Below, one piece after another: positions 1,547 to 12,179 of a DNA stretch of 64,000 bases. This stretch comes from a virus, in IMG/VR virus record IMGVR_UViG_3300037042_004000, positions 1-64,000 of that record; one strand, written 5' to 3'. The position numbers were made by a program, and so were the translations under genes. The notes under the pieces are model-generated. The model did not search any database. It was not told the DNA's origin and worked only from the letters and a program-made list of their open reading frames with translations. The number at the start of each line of letters is the position of its first letter. Position 1 is the stretch's first letter.

Positions 1547-2106
1547 TGAGTTTTCGATTATGGTTAGAGGAAGATTATAGGGGGAATCATGAGGCACCTA
1601 GTTCTGCGCATTCACCTCTTCATGATTTAAGTGGTACTTATCCTGATGACATATATGGACCTGAAGGAGCGAGATTTTATGGGACAAGGGAGCCATATGA
1701 TTACGAGACAATATCAATTATTAAACAAGCTAGAAACAAGCCGAACATGCCCATTAAGATTTATAGGGCTGTTCCTGCTATTATAACGAATCAAGAAAAG
1801 ATTAATGACTTAGAGCAGCAGAAAAAATACATTTTAAAGCATGGCAAGATGCCAGCACATATTAAGAACAATGACAGGTCAACATATTACGGATTTATCA
1901 GTGATGAGTTAGATAAATTAAGATTATTACCTACAGAAAAGAGGGTTGGTATAAATGCGGGTGATTGGGTGACTATTAATAAATCATATGCGGTGGAGCA
2001 TGGTCGGAGTCAGTTTGGCAGATACAGGATAATCAGCAAGACAGTACCAGCGAGGACATTACATACATTTGGTGACAGCATACATGAGTGGGGATATAAT
2101 CCATGA
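1543..2106 (+). CDS. Cargo-motif protein, possibly ADP-ribosyltransferase-like fold
   Basis: MSFRLWLEE start; IYRAVP...GDWVT...YAVEHG...IHEWGY pattern resembles domains of phage polyvalent proteins; fold call is tentative. Confidence 0.45.
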   Translation: MMSFRLWLEEDYRGNHEAPSSAHSPLHDLSGTYPDDIYGPEGARFYGTREPYDYETISIIKQARNKPNMPIKIYRAVPAIITNQEKINDLEQQKKYILKHGKMPAHIKNNDRSTYYGFISDELDKLRLLPTEKRVGINAGDWVTINKSYAVEHGRSQFGRYRIISKTVPARTLHTFGDSIHEWGYNP

Positions 2107-2121
2107 TTACTATACTATAAC

Positions 2122-2292
2122 ATGATTACCAAAGAACAAAAAAAATTGATATTAACAAAGTTATCGGGAATTGAGGGTCGGACATTGGTATTAGACTATT
2201 TAACCAAGGTGGGGGCAACAGGGCATCGCACATTAGTATTTGAGACTGCTTTACGGGATTTTCTTTTAGAGCTTGCTGAAAAGGTTGAATAA
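2122..2292 (+). CDS. Small hypothetical protein (56 aa, below the ORF-track cutoff)
   Basis: ATG at 2122 is open to TAA at 2290-2292 and fills the intergenic gap. Confidence 0.5.
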   Translation: MITKEQKKLILTKLSGIEGRTLVLDYLTKVGATGHRTLVFETALRDFLLELAEKVE

Positions 2293-2295
2293 TTA

Positions 2296-2544
2296 CTATT
2301 GATTTAATTTCCTCAAAATTTGTAATAATTCTTGTTTATCTCTATCATTTCCATTTCCACTGTTTACTTTTTTAGAGATATCTTGTACAGAGCGATACAT
2401 TCTATCAATTTCTTGGCTATCTAGGTCGTCAACGATATCGCCATGACCTTCCGTTCTTAATTTTTGTTTAGTAGCATCTAAAGACTGTTTAATTTTTTGT
2501 GTCATTCTTCGTAGTTCATCAGTTTGTGAAGGTCTTGTGAGCAA
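2296..2544 (-). CDS. Small helical hypothetical protein
   Basis: ORF track; amphipathic composition; convergent with 2122-2292. Confidence 0.5.
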   Translation of the reverse strand: MLTRPSQTDELRRMTQKIKQSLDATKQKLRTEGHGDIVDDLDSQEIDRMYRSVQDISKKVNSGNGNDRDKQELLQILRKLNQ

Positions 2545-2831
2545 ATTTAAGCAACAAATGGGACCGAGTCATTTTTACGGACCTTATAAATTAGAACAAA
2601 TTCCACAATCTCTACAGCAGGCATGTGATATAACGGGTGAAGACACGGAATATAAGATTGAGATAGGGCGATTTGATTTTGGCAGAGAGAATCCACAAGA
2701 CATTGTTATGGGTATTAACTCTTATTTTTGGCAAAGGGTTTAAGTTTGATACAGCCATACCTGGGGCAGCAGAAAGAAACAAACAATTAGAGCTTGATCC
2801 GATGGCCAAGAAAAGAGGATTTATTTCATGA
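2537..2831 (+). pseudogene. Probable frameshifted hypothetical gene (one extra G in ATAGGGCGAT near 2665)
   Basis: The +1 frame after the G-run reads GDLILAERIHKTLLWVLTLIFGKGFKFD...KRGFIS* and ends at 2831. Confidence 0.4.
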
Positions 2832-2848
2832 ATGACATGATTATTTTG

Positions 2849-4070
2849 ACAAAAATGAACAAAATATAGCAAAAAATGAATTAGACATACTATATAAGTA
2901 TGTCATGAAACTAATTCGCTCAACTAAACTCACACTCAAATTTGTCAATAAAAGTAAAAAACAACAATTACTACTCATTCTAACTGAATACAGTAAGGTT
3001 GTCAATTTCTTTATTGATTTGTTTTGGGAACAACCAATTTCAAAAAGACAATTATTAAAAACAGTATTGGCAAAAGCAGATACTTGGCTTTGTGCCAGAA
3101 CACGTAAGGTTGCTGCAAGGGAAGCCATTGATATGATTCGCTCTGCAAAGGAAGTTGCCAAAACTCGTAGCGAAGAACAAGAAAAAGAAGTCTTGCCATT
3201 AAAACCAGTGCATCACGGTAATCGTATGTGTTTTTCTTCTATGAATGTAAGATTGGAAACCAGTAAAACAAAACATTTTGATGCTTGGCTTCATTTATCT
3301 TCCATTGGTAATAAAACCATCATTGATTTACCCCTCAAAGGGCATAAACACCTGAATAAAATTAAATCAATGGGTAAGAGATTGGAGTCATACATTATTA
3401 CGCCTAATTATGTTCAAGTTTGTTATGAAATAAACACAGGGACAAAGTTAAATGATGGTGAAATGATTGGAATTGATACAGGGATTAATGCTTTGGCAAC
3501 ATTGGACAATGGACAACAATACGGCAAAGATGTTAAACAAAAGATTGAAAGAGTAAAACGATGCAAACATGGAAGTAAAGGACAACAAAAAGCTCGTAGG
3601 GCCTTGAAGCAATACATTGATGAGACTGCGAAAATAGTCACGAAAGACAAGCGTTTGGTAGTGGTTGAAAAATTACGCCAAATGAATTACAAAACAAAAC
3701 TCAAACGTCGCTTGAGCAAAAATATGCGACGATCTCTTGGTACATGGAATTATCGTTATTGGTTGATGCGGGTAGAAGCAGCTTGTGAGATTGGACGTTC
3801 CAGCTTCAGAAGCGTAGCCCCACAATATACCAGTCAACGATGCCAAGCATGTGGTCATACCGAGAGGGGAAATCGCAACGGAGAGATGTTCAAGTGTCGG
3901 AGTTGTGGTCATACTGACAATGCTGATGTTAATGCAGCCAAGAATATCTTGTTACGATTTACTTGCGGACAATACGGTGCCGCATTCAAACAGAAAAATG
4001 GTAAATTTAGGGAATCTGCTGTTGAGCAAGTTTCATGACAACCTAGATTTACCTAGATTTTTCTGAACGG
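2849..4070 (+). mobile_element. Non-autonomous IS607-like tnpB element (boundaries inferred)
   Basis: Contains tnpB; 3' inverted repeat GGTAAATTTAGG/CCTAGATTTACC; ACCTAGATTT x2; ends in AACGG; left end has repeated CAAAAATGAA-like units; no tnpA. Confidence 0.5.
2905..4038 (+). CDS. tnpB: RNA-guided endonuclease TnpB
   Basis: RuvC-I GIDTG, RuvC-II VVVEKL, zinc finger TSQRCQACGH...FKCRSCG, RuvC-III NADVNAAKNI; D-E-D triad intact. Confidence 0.93.
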   Translation: MKLIRSTKLTLKFVNKSKKQQLLLILTEYSKVVNFFIDLFWEQPISKRQLLKTVLAKADTWLCARTRKVAAREAIDMIRSAKEVAKTRSEEQEKEVLPLKPVHHGNRMCFSSMNVRLETSKTKHFDAWLHLSSIGNKTIIDLPLKGHKHLNKIKSMGKRLESYIITPNYVQVCYEINTGTKLNDGEMIGIDTGINALATLDNGQQYGKDVKQKIERVKRCKHGSKGQQKARRALKQYIDETAKIVTKDKRLVVVEKLRQMNYKTKLKRRLSKNMRRSLGTWNYRYWLMRVEAACEIGRSSFRSVAPQYTSQRCQACGHTERGNRNGEMFKCRSCGHTDNADVNAAKNILLRFTCGQYGAAFKQKNGKFRESAVEQVS

Positions 4071-4341
4071 TTGGCTATTTTATCCTCTGTGAATTTAAAG
4101 TCTTTAATAAGTCGATGAGTAACACTCACGGCAACAAAGTAGTTGTTAATTATTCGCATTAATACTTTTTTTCTACTTGGATCTTGGTATTGTGGTTTTT
4201 GAGCATAATCTTTTGTAAAGGTTTGTTCTGCCCATTGTTTTGCATTTGCCAAATCTTGTTGGTTTGGTGTTCTTATTTTTAAAAATTTGTTTTTAATTTC
4301 CATGAATCGGCTGTTAGCTTCATCTTCTTGCGATTGGTTAC

Positions 4342-5883
4342 AACGCTTCGGCGAAAGCCACACCATCTACTGATGTTCGCCCTGTGAGCGGTGACGACCG
4401 AGCCGTAGGCGAGGGAGACAATGCGAACTAGGGCGAACCCTTGGGGTGTGGTAAGCCGAAGCATAGTGGAAGTCAGTCCAGAAATTATTTTGGAAATCGG
4501 AGGATTTTGTTGCTGAAATTTGTTCCCGCAGTAACTAGATAAGTGCGTGGACAAAAGACTCAGCCAACGCAAAGCGACACAGAAACGAAGGAAGACCCAG
4601 ACCTGTAAGGTCTATGAGGCGAAGATTGACCGCTCTCACCTCTCCGCTTCTGCTGTCAGTCATTTGTCCAGTTTGTTCAAGGAAGCAAAGTGGTTTTACA
4701 ACTTCTGTCTCTCCCACGACGATGTGGATGAAGTGGACACAAAACTCCGTACTATCCCCGTCAAGGTTGGTGATAAGGATAGTGACGAATATGAAGACCG
4801 AGACTTGTCCGTCCTTCAAGCCCAAATGAAACAGGGGATACAAACCCGACTCTTCGGTTCGTTGATGAGTCTTGCCGCCTTGAAGGAAAAAGGTTTCAAG
4901 GTTGGACGATTGAAGTTCAAGGGAGCAGTCAATTCCATTCCATTGAAGCAATATGACAAGACCTACTTCATTCGCAACGGCAAGGTGCGGATACAAGGAC
5001 TGAAACAATGGTTGAGAGTCAATGGACTTGACCAAATCCCTGCCGATGCGGAGATTGCTAACGCTACGCTGGTTCGGAGGCACGGAGACTTCTACATCCA
5101 TGTGACGACCTACCAAGAGAAGGAAGTGAAGGTTGTTCCCAATGCCGTAATAGGAATTGACTTTGGTTGCGACACTCAACTCACTTTCTCCAACGGCGTG
5201 AAGGTCAAGTTCCAAGTTCCGCCAAGCAAAAGGTTGCGTCGGCTTGACCGCAAGATAATGCGACGAGGGAAGAAGGCACGCTCCAACAACAAGACCAAAG
5301 ACCAAATCAAGAGACAGAAAGAATACGAACGAGTCACCAACAAGAAGAAGGATATTAGGCACAAATTGGTGAGTGCCATCACGAACAACTATCGGTATGT
5401 TGCGTTTCAGGATGATTCCATTCACGCATGGGCGATGGGTGGTCATGGGAAGAAGGTTCAACATTCGGGGATCGGCGGAATACTCTCCGACTTGAAGCAC
5501 AAGTCGGTAACGCCCCTTGAAGTGGACAAGTTCTTTCCTAGCACCAAACTTTGTCCGCAATGTGGAAAGAAGAACTCACCAACGCTTGCCGATAGAACAT
5601 ACGAATGCGATTGTGGTTTCGTCATGGATAGGGACTTGAAATCAAGCATTTGTATTGAGAACGAAGGATTGAAACAAATACCTACGGACTGTAGGGAATT
5701 TACGCTTGGGGAGATTTCGACCTCTACTTTCATGGGTGCATTGGCTAATATCCACGGCATTCATGTAAGCAAGTTGGAGTCGTTGAACCAAGAAGCCGCA
5801 GCACGCAGTGGACATGAGGATGTAGGGAGTGAGCGTAAGCGAACGACCAAAGCCTCATGTCGGCTTGCCCTGCGGTAAGTCAC
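4342..5883 (+). mobile_element. IS200/IS605-family element (tnpB only), 1542 bp, inserted 3' of TTAC and ending in TCAC
   Basis: Visibly GC-richer than its flanks; hairpin-rich ends; both ends recur in the mini-element at 9404-9503; precise removal restores the host ORF; no target duplication. Confidence 0.9.
4547..5878 (+). CDS. tnpB: TnpB-family protein with atypical RuvC-II (FQDDSI)
   Basis: GRLKFK, GIDFG, FPSTKLCPQCG...YECDCG, DRDLKSS. Confidence 0.9.
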   Translation: MDKRLSQRKATQKRRKTQTCKVYEAKIDRSHLSASAVSHLSSLFKEAKWFYNFCLSHDDVDEVDTKLRTIPVKVGDKDSDEYEDRDLSVLQAQMKQGIQTRLFGSLMSLAALKEKGFKVGRLKFKGAVNSIPLKQYDKTYFIRNGKVRIQGLKQWLRVNGLDQIPADAEIANATLVRRHGDFYIHVTTYQEKEVKVVPNAVIGIDFGCDTQLTFSNGVKVKFQVPPSKRLRRLDRKIMRRGKKARSNNKTKDQIKRQKEYERVTNKKKDIRHKLVSAITNNYRYVAFQDDSIHAWAMGGHGKKVQHSGIGGILSDLKHKSVTPLEVDKFFPSTKLCPQCGKKNSPTLADRTYECDCGFVMDRDLKSSICIENEGLKQIPTDCREFTLGEISTSTFMGALANIHGIHVSKLESLNQEAAARSGHEDVGSERKRTTKASCRLALR

Positions 5884-5903
5884 TTGGATCTGCTTGAGCA
5901 GGT
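5790..5903 (+). ncRNA. Predicted omega/reRNA: structured right end plus flanking guide (5884 onward)
   Basis: Nested stems CCGCAG/CTGCGG and GACATGAGG/CCTCATGTC end at TCAC; TnpB guide RNAs are known to derive from the right end; 5' limit unknown. Confidence 0.55.
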
Positions 5904-6058
5904 TGATTCATTCCTGCTAATGTAGATGCTCCTAAAGTTGCTGCTAGTACACCTTTTTTAGCCCAATCTTTCCAACCTTCATCAATAAATTCTGGATGTT
6001 GTTCAACGAGCCATATTTCGAAATTTTTCATATATTCCTAACTTATTATAATTTTACC

Positions 6059-6274
6059 TTACTTGTATAATTTCCGCAATATTTGTAAGTATCGAGTGAT
6101 TTCCAAAGCTTGTTTTTCTAGTTCATCAAATTGAGTTGCTACTTGCGGATATCGTTCTGCAACTTCAGAGAGCGAAGATCTAAAATCATTTCCTATTGTT
6201 ATCAAATCAAAAAGGTCGGCATATAAGCTGCCCGAGTTTGCTACCTCACCTAGATATTTTTTCCAAGTTTTCAT
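6059..6274 (-). CDS. Small cargo-motif protein
   Basis: MKTWKKYLGE start. Confidence 0.65.
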   Translation of the reverse strand: MKTWKKYLGEVANSGSLYADLFDLITIGNDFRSSLSEVAERYPQVATQFDELEKQALEITRYLQILRKLYK

Positions 6275-6278
6275 TATT

Positions 6279-6551
6279 TTATTTCAATTGCCATTTATGA
6301 GGTGTAGCTCTTTGTTCGCCAGACATATTATTTCCCAACAAATTAGCAGCTTGTTCTAGGAGTTTAGTGGCTTGTTGAATTTGTTGATTAAATTCTTTAA
6401 AACTTGGATCAATACCGAAGGTTGTACGGATTTGAGTAGCGAGAGATTGTATTTGATGTTCAGCACCAGCAATAGTGGTAGGTTCTAGAGCAGGTCCATC
6501 AATACTTGGTCTGTAGATATCATTTTCAGTAAATTGATAAAATGTTTTCAT
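6279..6551 (-). CDS. Small cargo-motif protein (start revised to 6551)
   Basis: MKTFYQFTE begins 5 nt from TATATA. Confidence 0.65.
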   Translation of the reverse strand: MKTFYQFTENDIYRPSIDGPALEPTTIAGAEHQIQSLATQIRTTFGIDPSFKEFNQQIQQATKLLEQAANLLGNNMSGEQRATPHKWQLK

Positions 6552-6580
6552 AATAATATATATTATTATGAAAACATTTT
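6539..6580. promoter_or_regulatory. 42-bp perfect palindrome centred on TATATA, spanning two divergent start codons; candidate bidirectional late promoter
   Basis: AAAATGTTTTCATAATAATATATATTATTATGAAAACATTTT is self-complementary. Confidence 0.75.
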
Positions 6581-6996
6581 TAGAATGGATAGAGGCTAAC
6601 AATTTAGAAGAGGGATTAGGGAGAAATCTTTTAACATTAGGTTTAATGGGATTAGGAAGTTTGGGGGCAGCGGGTTGTAGTGACAACAAATGCGTTAAAC
6701 AGAATCAACCAGCAGCGGCGGTTCAACAAGATCAAATAAACATAAATTTAGGTGGTGCTAGAAAAGTTACAGCCATCCTTAATGCTGGGGAGGATAATGG
6801 TAATGGAACGGTGAGATTTTTAGGAAGTAAATTATCTTTTAAAAGCAACAGTGATTTAGCGAGTCAATATGCTAAGACAGCGATTTTAAAGGCAGCGGGG
6901 TTATCTCGTGGTCACATACAAGAATTTGAAATTACTGGGACACAACAGCAGGGGAATTGGATTATTACTAATTTTCAATGGACGGGTGTAAAGTGA
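6568..6996 (+). CDS. Cargo-motif protein with a hydrophobic segment and lipobox-like AAGC
   Basis: MKTFLEWIE...LEEG followed by LLTLGLMGLGSLGAAGC. Confidence 0.7.
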   Translation: MKTFLEWIEANNLEEGLGRNLLTLGLMGLGSLGAAGCSDNKCVKQNQPAAAVQQDQININLGGARKVTAILNAGEDNGNGTVRFLGSKLSFKSNSDLASQYAKTAILKAAGLSRGHIQEFEITGTQQQGNWIITNFQWTGVK

Positions 6997-7817
6997 AAGA
7001 GGAGATTTATCCTTTTACGGCGAATATTAAGAATCATGATGGCAAGTCTGTAACTATTTACATTGATCCCAACAAAAAAGAATTAGACAAATTAGATTTT
7101 ATGGACGGTGTACGAGCATTATTAGACGTTAAGAATTGTTATGCATGGGCAAATGCTTTTCATGCAACAATAATGAGGCAACTTAGTTTAAGCAATGCCA
7201 TTCCAGTTCTTCTTTTTTATGATAACCAGACAGAGATATATGTAATGGTTACAGATGCAAGCAGAAGTACGTTATGGCATGAGAATCCCAAAGTTGCTGT
7301 AGCGATAAGAAACCATCCTTATATAAGAAAATGGAAGAAGATAGAGATAGGTTATTACAATGAGGACATTGTAGGAGATTGGGAAAAAGCGAAGACATTT
7401 AAAGAGTGGTTACATACGAATCATGCCGAATTAGGGCGAAGATATCCTAAGATAAGAGGGTCGTCGGATCTTGTGGATGGCCGCAGAGTATCTGGAAACG
7501 TAGACAACACAAGTTCAATAGGTGCAAGTTTAACAAATTGGGTAGCGATGTCGGGTATACGGCGAATACCAGCGAGTGATTTTGAGGATTGGAATTCTGG
7601 ATATTTCCCAGATTGTAGGGCAGATGAACAACAAAAAGTTAAAGAATTGGTAGCCCAGATACAGAAATCTAATAGAATATCCCCATTGATAGTGGTGATA
7701 GATGCCAAAGGGCCATATGTATTAGAGGGAGTGCATCGTTACGACGCCTTAAAGATATTGAAAGCAAATTGGGTTCCAGCATTAATTGTGATAGATCAGG
7801 ATGAGGTTGAAATATGA
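6978..7817 (+). CDS. Two-domain protein with C-terminal ParB/Srx-like domain (likely GTG start at 6993)
   Basis: ISPLIV...YVLEGVHRYDALK...VPALIV; internal KTFKEWL motif. Confidence 0.6.
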   Translation: MDGCKVKEEIYPFTANIKNHDGKSVTIYIDPNKKELDKLDFMDGVRALLDVKNCYAWANAFHATIMRQLSLSNAIPVLLFYDNQTEIYVMVTDASRSTLWHENPKVAVAIRNHPYIRKWKKIEIGYYNEDIVGDWEKAKTFKEWLHTNHAELGRRYPKIRGSSDLVDGRRVSGNVDNTSSIGASLTNWVAMSGIRRIPASDFEDWNSGYFPDCRADEQQKVKELVAQIQKSNRISPLIVVIDAKGPYVLEGVHRYDALKILKANWVPALIVIDQDEVEI

Positions 7818-8311
7818 ATTTTAAAGAGTGGTTATTTAGATCAGAGAATTATAATAAGAAAATTAGTTATAATATTTATAAAAATCCAGACAAAGCAGAA
7901 TTATTAGAGACATTGGAGAAAGACAAAAAAATTTCAAGGGCTATGTGGGATGAAGATTATGCTGGTAACGTAAGAGGGCTTTTAGTTGGAGAAGACATAT
8001 ATATTTGGCCTGAAAACGCAAGTATGCATTATGATATGGCAAGGGAGTACGACCTAAATTACAGAGTAGCATTTTATATTAATGACTGGTTAAAACTTAA
8101 TGGAAGCCACGGCGATTTAAGTAATGTAGAGAGGAATCCTAATTACATCAGAATGATGGATGGGTCAGAAGCAACATCTTCACCATCTTCTTTTACGACA
8201 AGGACTTGGAAAGACGTAATGAGAAGGCCAACGAAGGTTGAGCCGGGTGGGGCTTTTGCATTACCATATGAATCTAAGATTCCAACAATAGTTTCTCCAA
8301 CTATAAGATAA
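7814..8311 (+). CDS. Cargo-motif protein, paralogous to the N-domain of 6978-7817
   Basis: MNFKEWL; shared IYxxPxKxEL...VRxLL...YxW...H. Confidence 0.65.
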   Translation: MNFKEWLFRSENYNKKISYNIYKNPDKAELLETLEKDKKISRAMWDEDYAGNVRGLLVGEDIYIWPENASMHYDMAREYDLNYRVAFYINDWLKLNGSHGDLSNVERNPNYIRMMDGSEATSSPSSFTTRTWKDVMRRPTKVEPGGAFALPYESKIPTIVSPTIR

Positions 8312-8520
8312 GAAAATGCTTTGTCCCCATGCGGCAGAGAGTCCAGGCCACATCAGCGAGATCGTGGTGAAAAGGTGACACTCTGAGCCAGGGGTCCATT
8401 TTTTCATTTCTTTTAATTTTAATAATCTCCACCGAAGGTTTTAGCTCGTCATTAATATAACCTAATCTATATTGTACAATTTCTTTTACGATTTGTCCAC
8501 TTATATTTTTTTCTTCAATT

Positions 8521-8673
8521 TTACCACTTCGACCAGAAGCATCGTGACCAACGTCTGTTAAAAGCAGAAGAAAGATAAAAATTAAAGTTAAAAATCCCCG
8601 ATCCCCAATTATTATTCCAACAATCAGAATAATTTGTCCAAGCAGGGTATAATGGTTTTTTAATAATTTTCAT
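8521..8673 (-). CDS. Trp-rich micropeptide (50 aa)
   Basis: MKIIKKPLYPAW...RRWSRCFWSKW*; TATATA lies upstream. Confidence 0.4.
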   Translation of the reverse strand: MKIIKKPLYPAWTNYSDCWNNNWGSGIFNFNFYLSSAFNRRWSRCFWSKW

Positions 8674-8713
8674 AAATAAGCATATATACTTTTAACTTTT
8701 AAGGAGAGGAAAC

Positions 8714-9076
8714 ATGGGAGCTACAAGCGTAACAGGCGTATCTGGAGTAGGTTCTGCTGAAGGTCATACAAAGGGACCGAATAATAGTCGCAATACATAT
8801 GTGCCATTAGTTGGCCCAAGAGTTATAGCTGCTGGTCATGGTCAATTATCTACTGGAACATTGGTAGTTTATATGCCAACACCGATACCTAACGGTGCGA
8901 ATTTAATTTTATCGGTTACAGAGATATTGGTTTCATCAGCAGTCACAAGTGATGCAGCCACTATTGGAGATGTAACATTAAACGTAGGTGGTGACTTAAT
9001 ACAGTTTACCATTAAAGGGACAAATAATAATTATGTTAATTGGCTAGTTGTTAATCCTGGATTTTTCATTGGTTAA
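8714..9076 (+). CDS. MGAxSVTGV-family protein, putative virion decoration/structural protein
   Basis: Strong AAGGAG RBS; N-terminus shared with 12816-13247 and 13264-13692. Confidence 0.6.
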   Translation: MGATSVTGVSGVGSAEGHTKGPNNSRNTYVPLVGPRVIAAGHGQLSTGTLVVYMPTPIPNGANLILSVTEILVSSAVTSDAATIGDVTLNVGGDLIQFTIKGTNNNYVNWLVVNPGFFIG

Positions 9077-9532
9077 AAATAGTTTATTAAAATTGTTTCA
9101 TCCAATGGTGTAATATCTTGATCTAATTCAAAGACAGCTTCAACACAAATTTCATAATCTTTTAAAAACTCTTCATAGGTAGGAGGAATAATTAGTTCGC
9201 TTTTTGTTATTGCACATTGTCTGTTTTTGGCAAGTTGTTCATCAATATACTTGTCACTTTGTTCAATATATTTATTGGTATTATTAATTTGGTCAACAAA
9301 CACTTTAAATTCTGTTTTTAATTGTTCGTCGGTAAAAGAGAGTCTAAGTTTGTCACGGGCATTTATTTCATTTTCAGCCTTAACCAAATAGATCTGATCC
9401 GCTGTGACTTACCGCAGGGCAAGCCAGCTCCCTCGCCTGCGGCTCGGTCGCCACCGCTCACGGGTCAAACATCAGTAGATGGTGTGGCTTTCGCCGAAGC
9501 GTAGTAACATCACAAACCACATAAGTTTTCAT
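9073..9532 (-). pseudogene. Hypothetical gene interrupted by the 100-bp mini-element
   Basis: Removing 9404-9503 gives 360 nt in frame, MKTYVVCDVTADQIYLVKAEN...; its ATG overlaps the upstream TGA (ATGA). Confidence 0.8.
9404..9503 (-). mobile_element. 100-bp non-autonomous IS605-derived mini-element (MITE/PATE-like)
   Basis: First 76 nt match 4342-4417 at 70/76; last 22 nt are identical to 5862-5883; preceded by TTAC. Confidence 0.92.
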
Positions 9533-10110
9533 TTTAATAGTTCTGTTTTGTTTCTAGAATTTAGAAGGAATGGAGTGGGATCACGCAAAGCATCGCAAAA
9601 ACCTTGTGATGCGGTTGTTATTCCAGGAGCATAAAGTTCGATATGTAACATGTAACAGGAATGTCCTTGAATATCTGGTCTTTCTTTTACTTGTGGCAGG
9701 ACACGGGTAACGGAACCAATTGCTTCACCTTTTCTGACGGAATAACCTACAATCATTTTAGGATTAACCGCAATTTCGCCATATAAAATTACACCAGTGG
9801 CACCTTCAACAAGAATAGCATCAGTGTTGAGCCACCAAGAAGAATTATCTTGGGGTCCAGTAAAATGTTCAATACCAACAACTATTCCAGGTTCAACGGC
9901 GTGAACGACATTACCGTCATATGTATAAAGATCTACACCTGTATGTTTTGAATGTTTTCTTTGGACTCCAAAGGCCCCTGGATGATTTTCAACAGGGATT
10001 TTTGGGTCTAGAACGTCTAAGGGAAACCGCCATTTGGTAGCTTCTTTTAACGTATTAATAATGTCGAGGATGAGTGCCATTGCTCCTTCTCCATCATCCC
10101 CACAAGCCAA
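9529..10110 (-). CDS. M23-family peptidase domain; its N-terminus is the displaced C-terminus of CoaC
   Basis: HTGVDL and HSCYMLHIEL zinc motifs; frame begins LACGDDGEGAM. Confidence 0.8.
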   Translation of the reverse strand: MACGDDGEGAMALILDIINTLKEATKWRFPLDVLDPKIPVENHPGAFGVQRKHSKHTGVDLYTYDGNVVHAVEPGIVVGIEHFTGPQDNSSWWLNTDAILVEGATGVILYGEIAVNPKMIVGYSVRKGEAIGSVTRVLPQVKERPDIQGHSCYMLHIELYAPGITTASQGFCDALRDPTPFLLNSRNKTELLK

Positions 10111-10580
10111 TTTTTACTAATTGGTTCAACTAGATAAACATTTCCAAAATCTTTCACTTTGGACAGATGTTCTTTAGTAAGTGGATGCAAATACATATTG
10201 GTATTTGCGGTGGGCGCTAAGATAATTGGTTTATTCCAATCCCATGCTCTAAGGATGCTAGTAAGTAAATTATCACAAATACCATTTGCCATTTTGGCAA
10301 GGGTATTCATGGAGCATGGTGCAATAACAAGGACATGAGCCCATTTTCTTAATTCTATATGCAGGACTGGGTCATCTTTTTGCCATTGATTATCCCATCC
10401 ATTAGGTCTTTCCCATCGCCATTCATCATCATCTGTATACATATCTTCCCAGAAATTCATAAATTTCAAGGCACATGGAGTAGTCACAATTTTCACACTT
10501 CCCAACTCAGAAAGTGCTTGTCTTGTTTTTTCATAAAGGGTGGTAGCGACACTACCCGTTAGACCTAAAATAATGTTCAT
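10047..10580 (-). CDS. coaC: Phosphopantothenoylcysteine decarboxylase (HFCD flavoprotein), frameshifted near 10111-10115
   Basis: ILGLTGSVA, LHIELRKWA, IAPCSMNTLAKMANGICDNLLT, APTANTNMYLHP. Confidence 0.88.
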   Translation of the reverse strand: MNIILGLTGSVATTLYEKTRQALSELGSVKIVTTPCALKFMNFWEDMYTDDDEWRWERPNGWDNQWQKDDPVLHIELRKWAHVLVIAPCSMNTLAKMANGICDNLLTSILRAWDWNKPIILAPTANTNMYLHPLTKEHLSKVKDFGNVYLVEPISKNWLVGMMEKEQWHSSSTLLIR

Positions 10581-10702
10581 TTCCAAGACCTAGACCTAGA
10601 CCAAGACCTAGACCAAGACCAAGACCAAGACCAAGATGAAGACCAAGATAAAGACCAAGGCCAAAATGGGGACTCAGAATTTATTTTTTGAAATAATTTC
10701 AT
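10577..10702 (-). CDS. 41-aa Ser-Trp/Ser-Arg dipeptide-repeat micropeptide
   Basis: MKLFQKINSESPFWPWSLSWSSSWSWSWSWSRSWSRSRSWK*, encoded by (TCTWGG)n; stop overlaps the coaC ATG (ATGA). Confidence 0.6.
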   Translation of the reverse strand: MKLFQKINSESPFWPWSLSWSSSWSWSWSWSRSWSRSRSWK

Positions 10703-10710
10703 GTAAGCAA

Positions 10711-11457
10711 CTACTCCTTAAATTCTTTTGCCCATCTTGCGGTGCGGCAGATTTTACTAGCGACGTGATTAGGATTATCAATTACACCTTTTTCCAATCT
10801 CATTGTATAATCTTTGCCTTTTTGCACAAGATGGAGGACATGGTTTCCTTGAACAATGGATAGCCAATCATTAGCGACTACAATATCGCAATCATTATCT
10901 TCGATGCTTTTTCTGGCAGCGGCGATTAATTCTTCTTGGGTAGCACCTACAAGTAATTTAAAGCCGACAAGTAGGGTGGTTGGACACCATTTTTTGACTT
11001 GACTAATTAATTTTGGAAGTGGTTTAAGATGGATAGAGAGAGCGTCATTTGAACGAATTTTACCATCAACTACATTTTCTACCCCATAATCGGAGACAGC
11101 AGCAGCAAGGACTGTAATATCTGGTTTTTGTTCTACTAGAATTTTTTCTAATAAAGCTGCATATTCATCAAAGGTTTTGTAGATATGTTCAGTATATTTA
11201 TCTTTTGCGAAATTCCAAAGACCATGAGCATCCAGTAATTTTCGCATATTAGTTTCATAGTCACTGGATAGGTTTAGATCAATATTTACGGTGAATGGGG
11301 AGTTGGATCGTTTAGCTCTAAGAAAGATAACTTCTTCACCCAATAAGAGTGTTTCATGTGCCAATTGCGCACCAAATGTTCCTTGGCTCATATTGGTGAT
11401 AGATCTAACTTGGTCGATTTTAATCTTTGTTCCGCCAGAAGTGATAAGAACTTTCAT
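10711..11457 (-). CDS. coaB: Phosphopantothenate-cysteine ligase
   Basis: VLITSGGT..IDQVRSITNMSQGTFG, AAAVSDY, KIRS, PKLI, LVGFKL, VVAND. Confidence 0.92.
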   Translation of the reverse strand: MKVLITSGGTKIKIDQVRSITNMSQGTFGAQLAHETLLLGEEVIFLRAKRSNSPFTVNIDLNLSSDYETNMRKLLDAHGLWNFAKDKYTEHIYKTFDEYAALLEKILVEQKPDITVLAAAVSDYGVENVVDGKIRSNDALSIHLKPLPKLISQVKKWCPTTLLVGFKLLVGATQEELIAAARKSIEDNDCDIVVANDWLSIVQGNHVLHLVQKGKDYTMRLEKGVIDNPNHVASKICRTARWAKEFKE

Positions 11458-11672
11458 TTTTTAAATCCTATTTTTGTTTTATTTTTTCCATCTGTTGATA
11501 TTTCAACATCATCTAGCCATTCAGATTTTCGGGTTCTGTTGTCCCACCATACAACTTGATATTGAATTCTTCCGCAATATAATGCAATACCTATAATTGT
11601 TGCAGGAAATCTATCGCCACCTAATCCTATCGTTACTTCTTGATTAAGACTCAACACAATTATTTCACTCAT
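11454..11672 (-). CDS. Small SH3-like beta hypothetical protein
   Basis: YQVVWWD; ATGA-coupled to coaB. Confidence 0.5.
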   Translation of the reverse strand: MSEIIVLSLNQEVTIGLGGDRFPATIIGIALYCGRIQYQVVWWDNRTRKSEWLDDVEISTDGKNKTKIGFKK

Positions 11673-11673
11673 G

Positions 11674-11865
11674 TTAAAACCTTTTTAAATTCATTGTGAA
11701 AGTTGTTTTTTCTTCACTATCTGACATAGCATTAATTAGAACCTGTGCCTCAAAAACTATGTTCTGCATACGATGACAAACTAATAACGCACTAACAAAA
11801 TCGTTGTTCCACAAAGTTTTGCCATAGTCCCTTAGTTCTTTTAGGTGTTCTAGGTAGGTATTCAT
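11674..11865 (-). CDS. Hypothetical protein
   Basis: ORF track; operon context. Confidence 0.5.
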   Translation of the reverse strand: MNTYLEHLKELRDYGKTLWNNDFVSALLVCHRMQNIVFEAQVLINAMSDSEEKTTFTMNLKRF

Positions 11866-11903
11866 ACTTTTTTAAATCCAATTTTTTATTTTATGCTCGT
11901 CTT

Positions 11904-12179
11904 TTATTGGAAATATTTCAACTTTTTCACAAAGTCTAGGATTTGCTTGGCATGTAACTCATTAAATACGGTTCTATTTTCATCATCAGGATCTTGTGGA
12001 TCTTGTTGAGTATTGGTGTAAACATCTGCAAACGACAATTGCAAGCAATCTAATTGTTGTGTTTTATTTATTTTTGGCCAATCGGTATGAGAGTCAATAG
12101 AAATGCAAATCCACGGTTTATCGAATGTGAATTTTTGTGCTTCAGATTTTGACAAGATTAAAATTTTTCCGAACCGCAT
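11904..12179 (-). CDS. N-terminal part of a predicted protein-tyrosine-phosphatase-like protein, lacking the CX5R loop
   Basis: ICISI...LQLSFADV...FNELHAKQILDFV, then stop. Confidence 0.45.
   Translation of the reverse strand: MRFGKILILSKSEAQKFTFDKPWICISIDSHTDWPKINKTQQLDCLQLSFADVYTNTQQDPQDPDDENRTVFNELHAKQILDFVKKLKYFQ

Follow-up and report, generated by a model that had tools for sequence, protein, structure and literature searches.

The locus and its two insertions

The DNA analysed here (the window) comprises the first 64,000 nt of the 74,322-bp IMG/VR virus record IMGVR_UViG_3300037042_004000, in which two related sequences interrupt small genes: a 1542-bp TnpB-only element of the IS200/IS605 family at 4342–5883 (+), hereafter element B, and a 100-bp internal-deletion derivative at 9404–9503 (−), hereafter the stub. 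CheckV puts the completeness of the record at about 15%, and one of its genes encodes a T4-type portal protein (Pfam Portal_T4); the host of element B is a large T4-like phage, very large by that completeness estimate. We consider it highly probable that element B is a non-autonomous, TnpB-only IS200/IS605 member with IS608-like end signals; the stub is probably the scar of a sister element.

The first 76 nt of the two insertions, read on the plus strand for element B and on the minus strand for the stub, are identical at 70 of 76 positions, and their last 22 nt at all 22. In BLAST comparisons within the 74-kb record, the left-end and right-end matches reach E = 7e-28 and E = 3e-6, respectively, which is far beyond chance. 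Both insertions follow GTTAC (GGTTAC before element B, TGTTAC before the stub), both terminate in GTCAC, and target duplications are absent from their flanks. The TTAC tetranucleotides themselves lie at 4338–4341 (+) and, read from the sequence, at 9504–9507 (−). AC is the ending of flank and element alike, so the boundaries of either copy can slide by 2 nt, giving three possible registers. The G+C content of element B is 48.6%, vs 35.4% for the record. The sequence comparison thus reproduces the repeat reported by the first-pass annotation of this DNA. Both copies stand 3′ of a fixed tetra- or pentanucleotide and have neither target duplications nor terminal inverted repeats, and the undupli­cated flanks together with the Pfam and structure matches of TnpB (below) bear out the earlier assignment of element B to the IS200/IS605 type, inserted 3′ of TTAC.

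Element B lies antisense to the gene that it splits (gene 1). The 3′ piece of gene 1 occupies 4049–4341 (−; 97 codons including the stop) and its 5′ piece, in which AGGAA stands 3 nt ahead of the ATG, 5884–6031 (−; 49 codons plus 1 nt). Deletion of 4342–5883 yields a minus-strand open reading frame (ORF) of 146 aa, as had been annotated, but neither a word-indexed nor an exhaustive protein search supplied a homologue with which the restored product could be compared (the C-terminal half, used as query, matched itself only). The evidence for gene 1 therefore consists of its open frame and its ribosome-binding site.

The case of gene 2, in which the stub lies in sense orientation, is clearer. 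Its 3′ piece spans 9073–9403 (−; 110 codons plus the stop, with 1 nt of the split codon) and its 5′ piece 9504–9532 (−; nine codons plus 2 nt). Deletion of 9404–9503 restores a 119-aa ORF, whose ATG (9532–9530) overlaps the TGA of the upstream gene (9531–9529). The restored product aligns without gaps to the metagenomic protein P0003, also of 119 aa, with 77/119 residues identical and the junction spanned, which at the protein level supports a precise insertion into gene 2 and the earlier claim that in silico excision restores it. The stub most likely inactivates gene 2 or truncates its product N-terminally. No joint skipping 4342–5883 or 9404–9503 occurs among the source-run contigs, a result that is uninformative on excision, since rare variants are lost from contigs. 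No RNA data set was listed among the sequencing runs that carry the locus.

Relatives and boundaries of element B

Homologues of the element B TnpB number 728 at E ≤ 1e-30, and nearly all of them are metagenomic. Six relatives are encoded on viral contigs and share 61–70% identity with it; these contigs look like those of large phages too, because their 24–37 kb are rated as only 5–14% complete. A scan of metagenome contigs for a 16-mer of the right end returned 56 loci, and the further family members recovered in this way include L046/L030, L034, L059, L022, L026, L031, L049 and L068, of which L046/L030 is 80% identical to element B along the entire element. At least nine relatives (these loci and copies in runs X1–X3) share the terminus ending in GTCAC and then enter unrelated flanks. 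The right boundary of element B at 5883, as first annotated, is therefore firm. Within each of the pairs L022/L026 and L031/L068, the right-end sequence is identical and the flanks differ, so the family has been mobile. In the source metagenome (run X1), at least one further copy of the right end of element B was seen as a loose end behind 5883; this copy joins a different AT-rich flank, starting AATCATCTTTTGGATC.

Other searches were empty. A megablast of window positions 2000–12000 against phage records gave no match, neither the 22-nt right end nor a 20-nt left-end word had an exact match in viral contigs, and no close relative emerged when 185,579 reference prokaryote genomes were scanned with a TnpB pattern.

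End signals and guide/target pairs

In IS608, the transposase TnpA binds subterminal hairpins, and each cleavage site, TTAC on the left and TCAA on the right, is recognized by the tetranucleotide 5′ of the respective hairpin foot, AAAG and GAAT, such that guide base 1 pairs with site base 2 and guide base 2 with site base 1 (PMC3201880, PMC5934647). By analogy, comparison of the left and right IS608 pairs suggests that guide base 4 would pair with site base 4.

The same signals can be read at both ends of element B. The left-end structure (4345–4462, +) comprises an outer helix P1 (4345–4352/4455–4462), the left guide G_L AAAG (4354–4357) and the left hairpin IP_L (arms 4358–4364 and 4445–4451). 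The guide stands directly 5′ of the hairpin foot, 16 nt from TTAC, which it pairs with as the left cleavage site C_L (IS608 rule, PMC5934647). The right-end signals (5792–5883, +) consist of the right guide G_R GAAG (5792–5795), the right hairpin IP_R (arms 5796–5801 and 5870–5875), the spacer TAAG (5876–5879) and TCAC (5880–5883). Both AAAG/TTAC and GAAG/TCAC fit the IS608 pairing rule. The hairpin arms are CCACACC/GGTGTGG on the left and CCGCAG/CTGCGG on the right, each followed by TAAG. Left and right hairpin feet are alike within an element and unlike between elements, and they co-vary among relatives.

The pairing extends to the family as a natural series. The left guide AAAG accompanies the target TTAC in element B, the stub, L007, L008 and L034; AAAA accompanies TTAT in L009, L012, L046 and element C (a third TnpB element of the record, described below); CAAA accompanies TGAT in L011; and CAAG accompanies TGAC in L031. 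All 11 left ends, across four target types, obey the IS608 rule, and GAAG/TCAC pairing holds at those right ends of relatives that were read. This co-variation of guide and target is the strongest evidence pointing to an IS608-type Y1 TnpA as the enzyme that would have placed these elements.

The first ~120 nt of element B fold into three nested helices (z = −3.8), and this architecture recurs in most of the folded relatives and in element C, with compensatory changes between them. RNAalifold, run on a MAFFT alignment of left ends, recovered the helices in part only, because the loop module varies in length, and single-sequence folds were used instead. Set against the simple right ends found in L022, L031 and other relatives, the structure becomes understandable: it is an ordinary left hairpin with a stem-loop module of ~85 nt in its loop and the outer helix P1 around guide and hairpin. 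In the folds, the stem of this module (P3) pairs 4375–4382 with 4431–4438 (+). A similar module of ~60 nt occupies the right hairpin loop of element B, L046, L059 and L049, where the tnpB frame runs through it and gains a 20-residue C-terminal extension. Across the family, modules of 60–85 nt (window 4365–4444 and 5802–5862; L034:5024–5168) are found in the left hairpin loop, the right one or both; their stem co-varies, and their apical GAGCG..GCGA motifs resemble the stable GCGAAGC mini-hairpin.

TnpB and its omega-RNA

The tnpB gene (4547–5878, +) encodes 443 aa from a GTG start, and its TAA stop lies within the flank of the right-end hairpin. The product matches Pfam OrfB_IS605 and the Cas12f1-like TNB domain, as well as the ISDra2 TnpB structures (E = 4e-18). 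Of the RuvC triad (D, E, D) and zinc ribbon of TnpB nucleases, it contains the Asp of GIDFG, the Asp of MDRD and the CxxC...CxC motif. At the presumed RuvC-II catalytic position, the codon GAT (5414–5416, +) specifies Asp290, where 12/12 aligned relatives have Glu in an FQDES motif; the copy in element B is alone among them in this respect, and related copies in runs X2 and X6 carry a G at 5416, which makes the codon GAG and the residue Glu. HMMER aligns the catalytic E278 of ISDra2 two residues before the Asp290 position, onto a Gln that is invariant, and for this reason the conserved Glu is likely the better candidate for the RuvC catalytic residue.

Nucleotide-level conservation is high over the last ~200 nt of element B, and RNAalifold on 11 relatives predicts 41 base pairs in this part, of which 17 show compensatory changes, in keeping with an omega-RNA scaffold extending up to the right boundary. 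The putative scaffold (5680–5883, +; nhmmer match 5676–5815) overlaps the 3′ end of tnpB, and the ~60-nt module lies within its terminal hairpin loop (~5802–5862); some relatives do not have this module. It is plausible, by analogy with the family, that TTAC serves as the target-adjacent motif (TAM) and that the 16 nt from 5884 on (5884–5899, +), a sequence unique in the record, serve as the guide. Just upstream of tnpB, five of the relatives on viral contigs (among L007–L012) have a TATA-rich box (...ACTATATAA...) that is partly palindromic and stands at most ~10 nt from the start codon, where a Shine-Dalgarno sequence is absent. The same position in element B (window 4530–4549) reads TAGATAA, a degraded form of the box.

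The 100-bp unit

The stub consists of a left-end part (9428–9503) and a right-end part (9404–9427). The first-pass annotation had described it as the element's first 76 nt, two linker nucleotides and the element's last 22 nt, and had taken it for a derivative of element B and a minimal mobilisable cassette. The two end matches stand. The supposed linker, CT, is part of the right end of a sister element, since the last 25 nt of the stub, CT included, match the right ends of L059 and L049 at 25/25 positions. The left-end variant of the stub in stem P3 likewise finds its complement in the copy from run X6. On both counts, the stub descends from a sister element by an independent insertion, and not from its neighbour, element B.

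Of the left hairpin, the stub retains the 5′ arm, together with the left guide AAAG and, at the right end, the terminal 24 nt. Missing are the left hairpin's 3′ arm, the bases that follow it and the entire omega-RNA scaffold. A second copy was found neither in the 74-kb record (BLAST and profile search) nor among the 56 metagenome loci with the right-end 16-mer. When compared with palindrome-associated transposable elements (PATEs), the stub thus has neither intact end hairpins nor several copies. Other derivatives of the family that are gene-less or nearly so are larger: L031 measures ~310 bp up to the right-end 16-mer, and L059 (5272–5621) at least 350 bp. In both, the complete omega-RNA scaffold and the tnpB promoter box are preserved, and L031, which is seen whole, keeps the left end with its left hairpin. 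L031 is a true PATE-like member of the family of element B, and L059 is probably another.

The idea that the stub is a minimal mobilisable cassette of the PATE kind, moved by a TnpA supplied in trans, draws on its two retained termini, its position 3′ of TTAC without duplication, the retained G_L, the existence of L031 and L059, and a perfect pairing of the left CCGCAGG with the right-arm CCTGCGG that provides one good hairpin beside TCAC. However, IS608 requires both the left hairpin 3′ arm and the adjoining 3′ bases for stable TnpA complexes (PMC3201880, PMC5934647), the bases 5′ of the rebuilt hairpin are CGAG and not GAAG, the stub is single-copy in the searches above, and the gene-less derivatives elsewhere have ~300 bp or more, with the left hairpin retained in L031. 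We regard a mobile cassette as rather unlikely; the stub is probably the scar of an internal deletion and immobile.

Proposed mechanism and alternative explanations

A Y1 transposase TnpA (PF01797) was detected neither in the whole 74-kb record, which extends to the rest of the record the earlier statement that the window holds none, nor in five related phage records, and element B is therefore regarded as non-autonomous. Its membership of IS200/IS605 is not excluded by this absence: most tnpB elements are non-autonomous, and ~75% of tnpB genes occur without tnpA (PMC10055086).

Under the preferred reading, element B would have inserted as single-stranded DNA 3′ of TTAC, into the small ORFan gene 1. 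A Y1 (HUH) TnpA, supplied in trans, would bind both subterminal hairpins, and the pairing of AAAG with TTAC and of GAAG with TCAC would fix cleavage at 4341|4342 and 5883|5884. The 3′ ~200 nt, overlapping the end of tnpB, would yield an omega-RNA with the right flank as guide, and the TnpB target would be TTAC plus the right flank, as it exists after excision or in a co-infecting phage without element B. The stub would have arisen when a sister element inserted independently and an internal deletion then left 100 bp.

Several points weigh against this reading. The TnpA is hypothetical here, with none in six phage records and only ~15% of the phage in hand by the CheckV estimate. Asp290 makes the nuclease activity of the element B TnpB uncertain, and the protein may be weakened or inactive. 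For the relatives, left boundaries come from alignment to element B and not from empty sites, so that the guide/target table depends partly on the alignment. Finally, the immobility of the stub is argued from IS608 biochemistry, and 7 bp can form between a stretch of its left end and the right hairpin's 3′ arm, rebuilding a right-end-like hairpin that a TnpA might still bind.

In a different mode of spread, element B would move mainly as an RNA-guided homing element among co-infecting phages: TnpB would cut at TTAC plus guide in phage genomes without the element, and recombination would copy it in, with TnpA rarely or never involved. The six phage records without TnpA, the occurrence of the family on phage-like contigs without a close relative in the reference prokaryote genomes, the TATA-rich box before tnpB in five viral-contig relatives and the established homing role of TnpB in bacteria (PMC10055086) would all suit such a life cycle. 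On the other hand, family members sit at many unrelated sites whose target matches their own left guide, which only TnpA-type insertion explains, and in element B itself, the position of the catalytic Glu is occupied by Asp and the promoter box is degraded; homing as the main route is accordingly judged unlikely. Similarly doubtful at present is a broader proposition, according to which the TnpB family in huge T4-like phages would be a phage-adapted, TnpA-poor selfish element with a possibly phage-type promoter box, homing, a relaxed T-K-A-Y TAM and a portable loop module. The relaxed TAM enters this proposition because single-base changes of the left guide retarget insertion (TTAC, TTAT, TGAT, TGAC), and TnpB would need to follow.

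An assembly chimera, with element B not truly part of the phage genome, might be suspected from the difference in G+C content and from the repeats that fragment Logan contigs at the ends of element B, and was rejected as very improbable: independent Logan contigs of the source sample span both junctions (3800–4372 and 5848–6568) at similar depth (9.3 inside element B vs 11.6–12.4 outside), and related copies also lie in AT-rich flanks. Least probable of all are IStron-like introns (group I ribozyme plus IS605) that are spliced from the mRNA and leave the split genes functional, a case for which the clean restoration of both frames, the strongly structured ~120-nt 5′ region and the existence of IStrons with TnpB (bioRxiv 10.1101/2023.11.20.567912) might speak, but which is ruled out by the antisense orientation of element B, an Rfam scan of 4000–10000 at E ≤ 1 without a match to any family, group I included, and splice boundaries that break the group I rule (exon ...U|, intron ...G|) in all three registers, and which also faces a 100-nt unit too short for a group I core and a 5′ structure already accounted for by the left-end hairpin and its loop module.

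Comparison with known systems

Element B resembles IS608 of Helicobacter pylori in its insertion 3′ of TTAC without duplication, in having AAAG as left guide immediately before the foot of the left hairpin, in a right-end cleavage that follows a TCAN tetranucleotide located a few bases beyond the right hairpin, in the pairing rule of guide and cleavage site, and in the likeness of its two hairpins. It differs in being TnpB-only, without tnpA, and in its spacing: target and left hairpin foot are 16 nt apart vs 19 nt in IS608, and 4 nt separate the right hairpin from the start of its cleavage site, whereas that of IS608 is 10 nt 3′ of the foot. The stem-loop modules of 60–85 nt in both hairpin loops, the outer helix P1 enclosing left guide and hairpin, and the large phage host also set it apart from IS608.

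With TnpB-only IS605 elements, such as ISDra2 and the Geobacillus ISGst elements, the majority of which are without tnpA (PMC8612924, PMC10055086), it shares the RuvC and zinc-ribbon parts of TnpB and an omega-RNA scaffold that overlaps the tnpB 3′ end and the right end; a guide taken from the right flank and a TAM derived from the transposase target would be expected by the same analogy. In contrast to them, element B has Asp for the conserved Glu, and the natural targets of its family vary (TTAC, TTAT, TGAT and TGAC), from which either a relaxed TAM or a co-evolving TnpB is predicted.

PATEs, described from Haloquadratum (PMC3119063) and Geobacillus (PMC10055086), keep both hairpins and often the omega-RNA and occur in several copies (PMC3119063, PMC10055086). 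The stub is like them in being gene-less with both IS605-type termini kept, and unlike them in having neither the left hairpin 3′ arm nor the omega-RNA scaffold and in being the only copy found. The IStrons of Clostridia (bioRxiv 10.1101/2023.11.20.567912) have in common with element B a TnpB element, a structured 5′ part and a clean interruption of a gene, whereas element B gave no ribozyme match, does not follow the splice-site rules and is antisense to its host gene.

A TnpB-only IS608-like element and a decayed derivative are both of kinds already described (PMC8612924, PMC10055086, PMC3119063), and element B leaves current understanding unchanged: it is a clean further example of a well-documented kind of selfish element, and no new system. 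What is new is that the host is a phage, that the hairpin loops contain modules and that the guide/target pairs form a natural series. Element B shows that very large environmental phages harbour TnpB-carrying peel-and-paste elements of the IS608 type, and that these disrupt small accessory genes of the phage. Their natural pairs AAAG/TTAC, AAAA/TTAT, CAAA/TGAT and CAAG/TGAC mirror the engineered retargeting of IS608, and the series raises the question of how the TAM of TnpB keeps pace with the target of the transposase.

Other TnpB genes in the record

A second, unrelated TnpB gene (TnpB-A; 2905–4038, +; 377 aa; flanks ~2860–4062) lies directly upstream of gene 1. Its product matches Pfam TNB at 4e-16, with Cas12f-like TnpBs as the nearest solved structures, and no close relatives were found in viral contigs. 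A TATATA-centred palindrome stands just before its ATG, and an inverted repeat (4000–4011/4043–4054) overlaps the stop codon of gene 1, beside a tandem CCTAGATTT repeat.

Element C, the third TnpB element, is AT-rich and lies outside the window (G000:C1 ~72290–73895, −; L004, L006). Its left end resembles that of element B (85 bits), follows TTTAT and carries the left guide AAAA. An 81-aa ORF without a Pfam match is followed by a TnpB gene (HTH_OrfB and OrfB_IS605) that is frameshifted after residue 323, and the terminus is formed by a right hairpin and then GTAATTCAC. The T4-type portal gene of the record is located at L006:2–1345 (+), equivalent to G000:C1 70857–72200 (Portal_T4, 6.5e-50), and the sequence just before its conserved portal core weakly matches the C-terminal part of an intein splicing domain.

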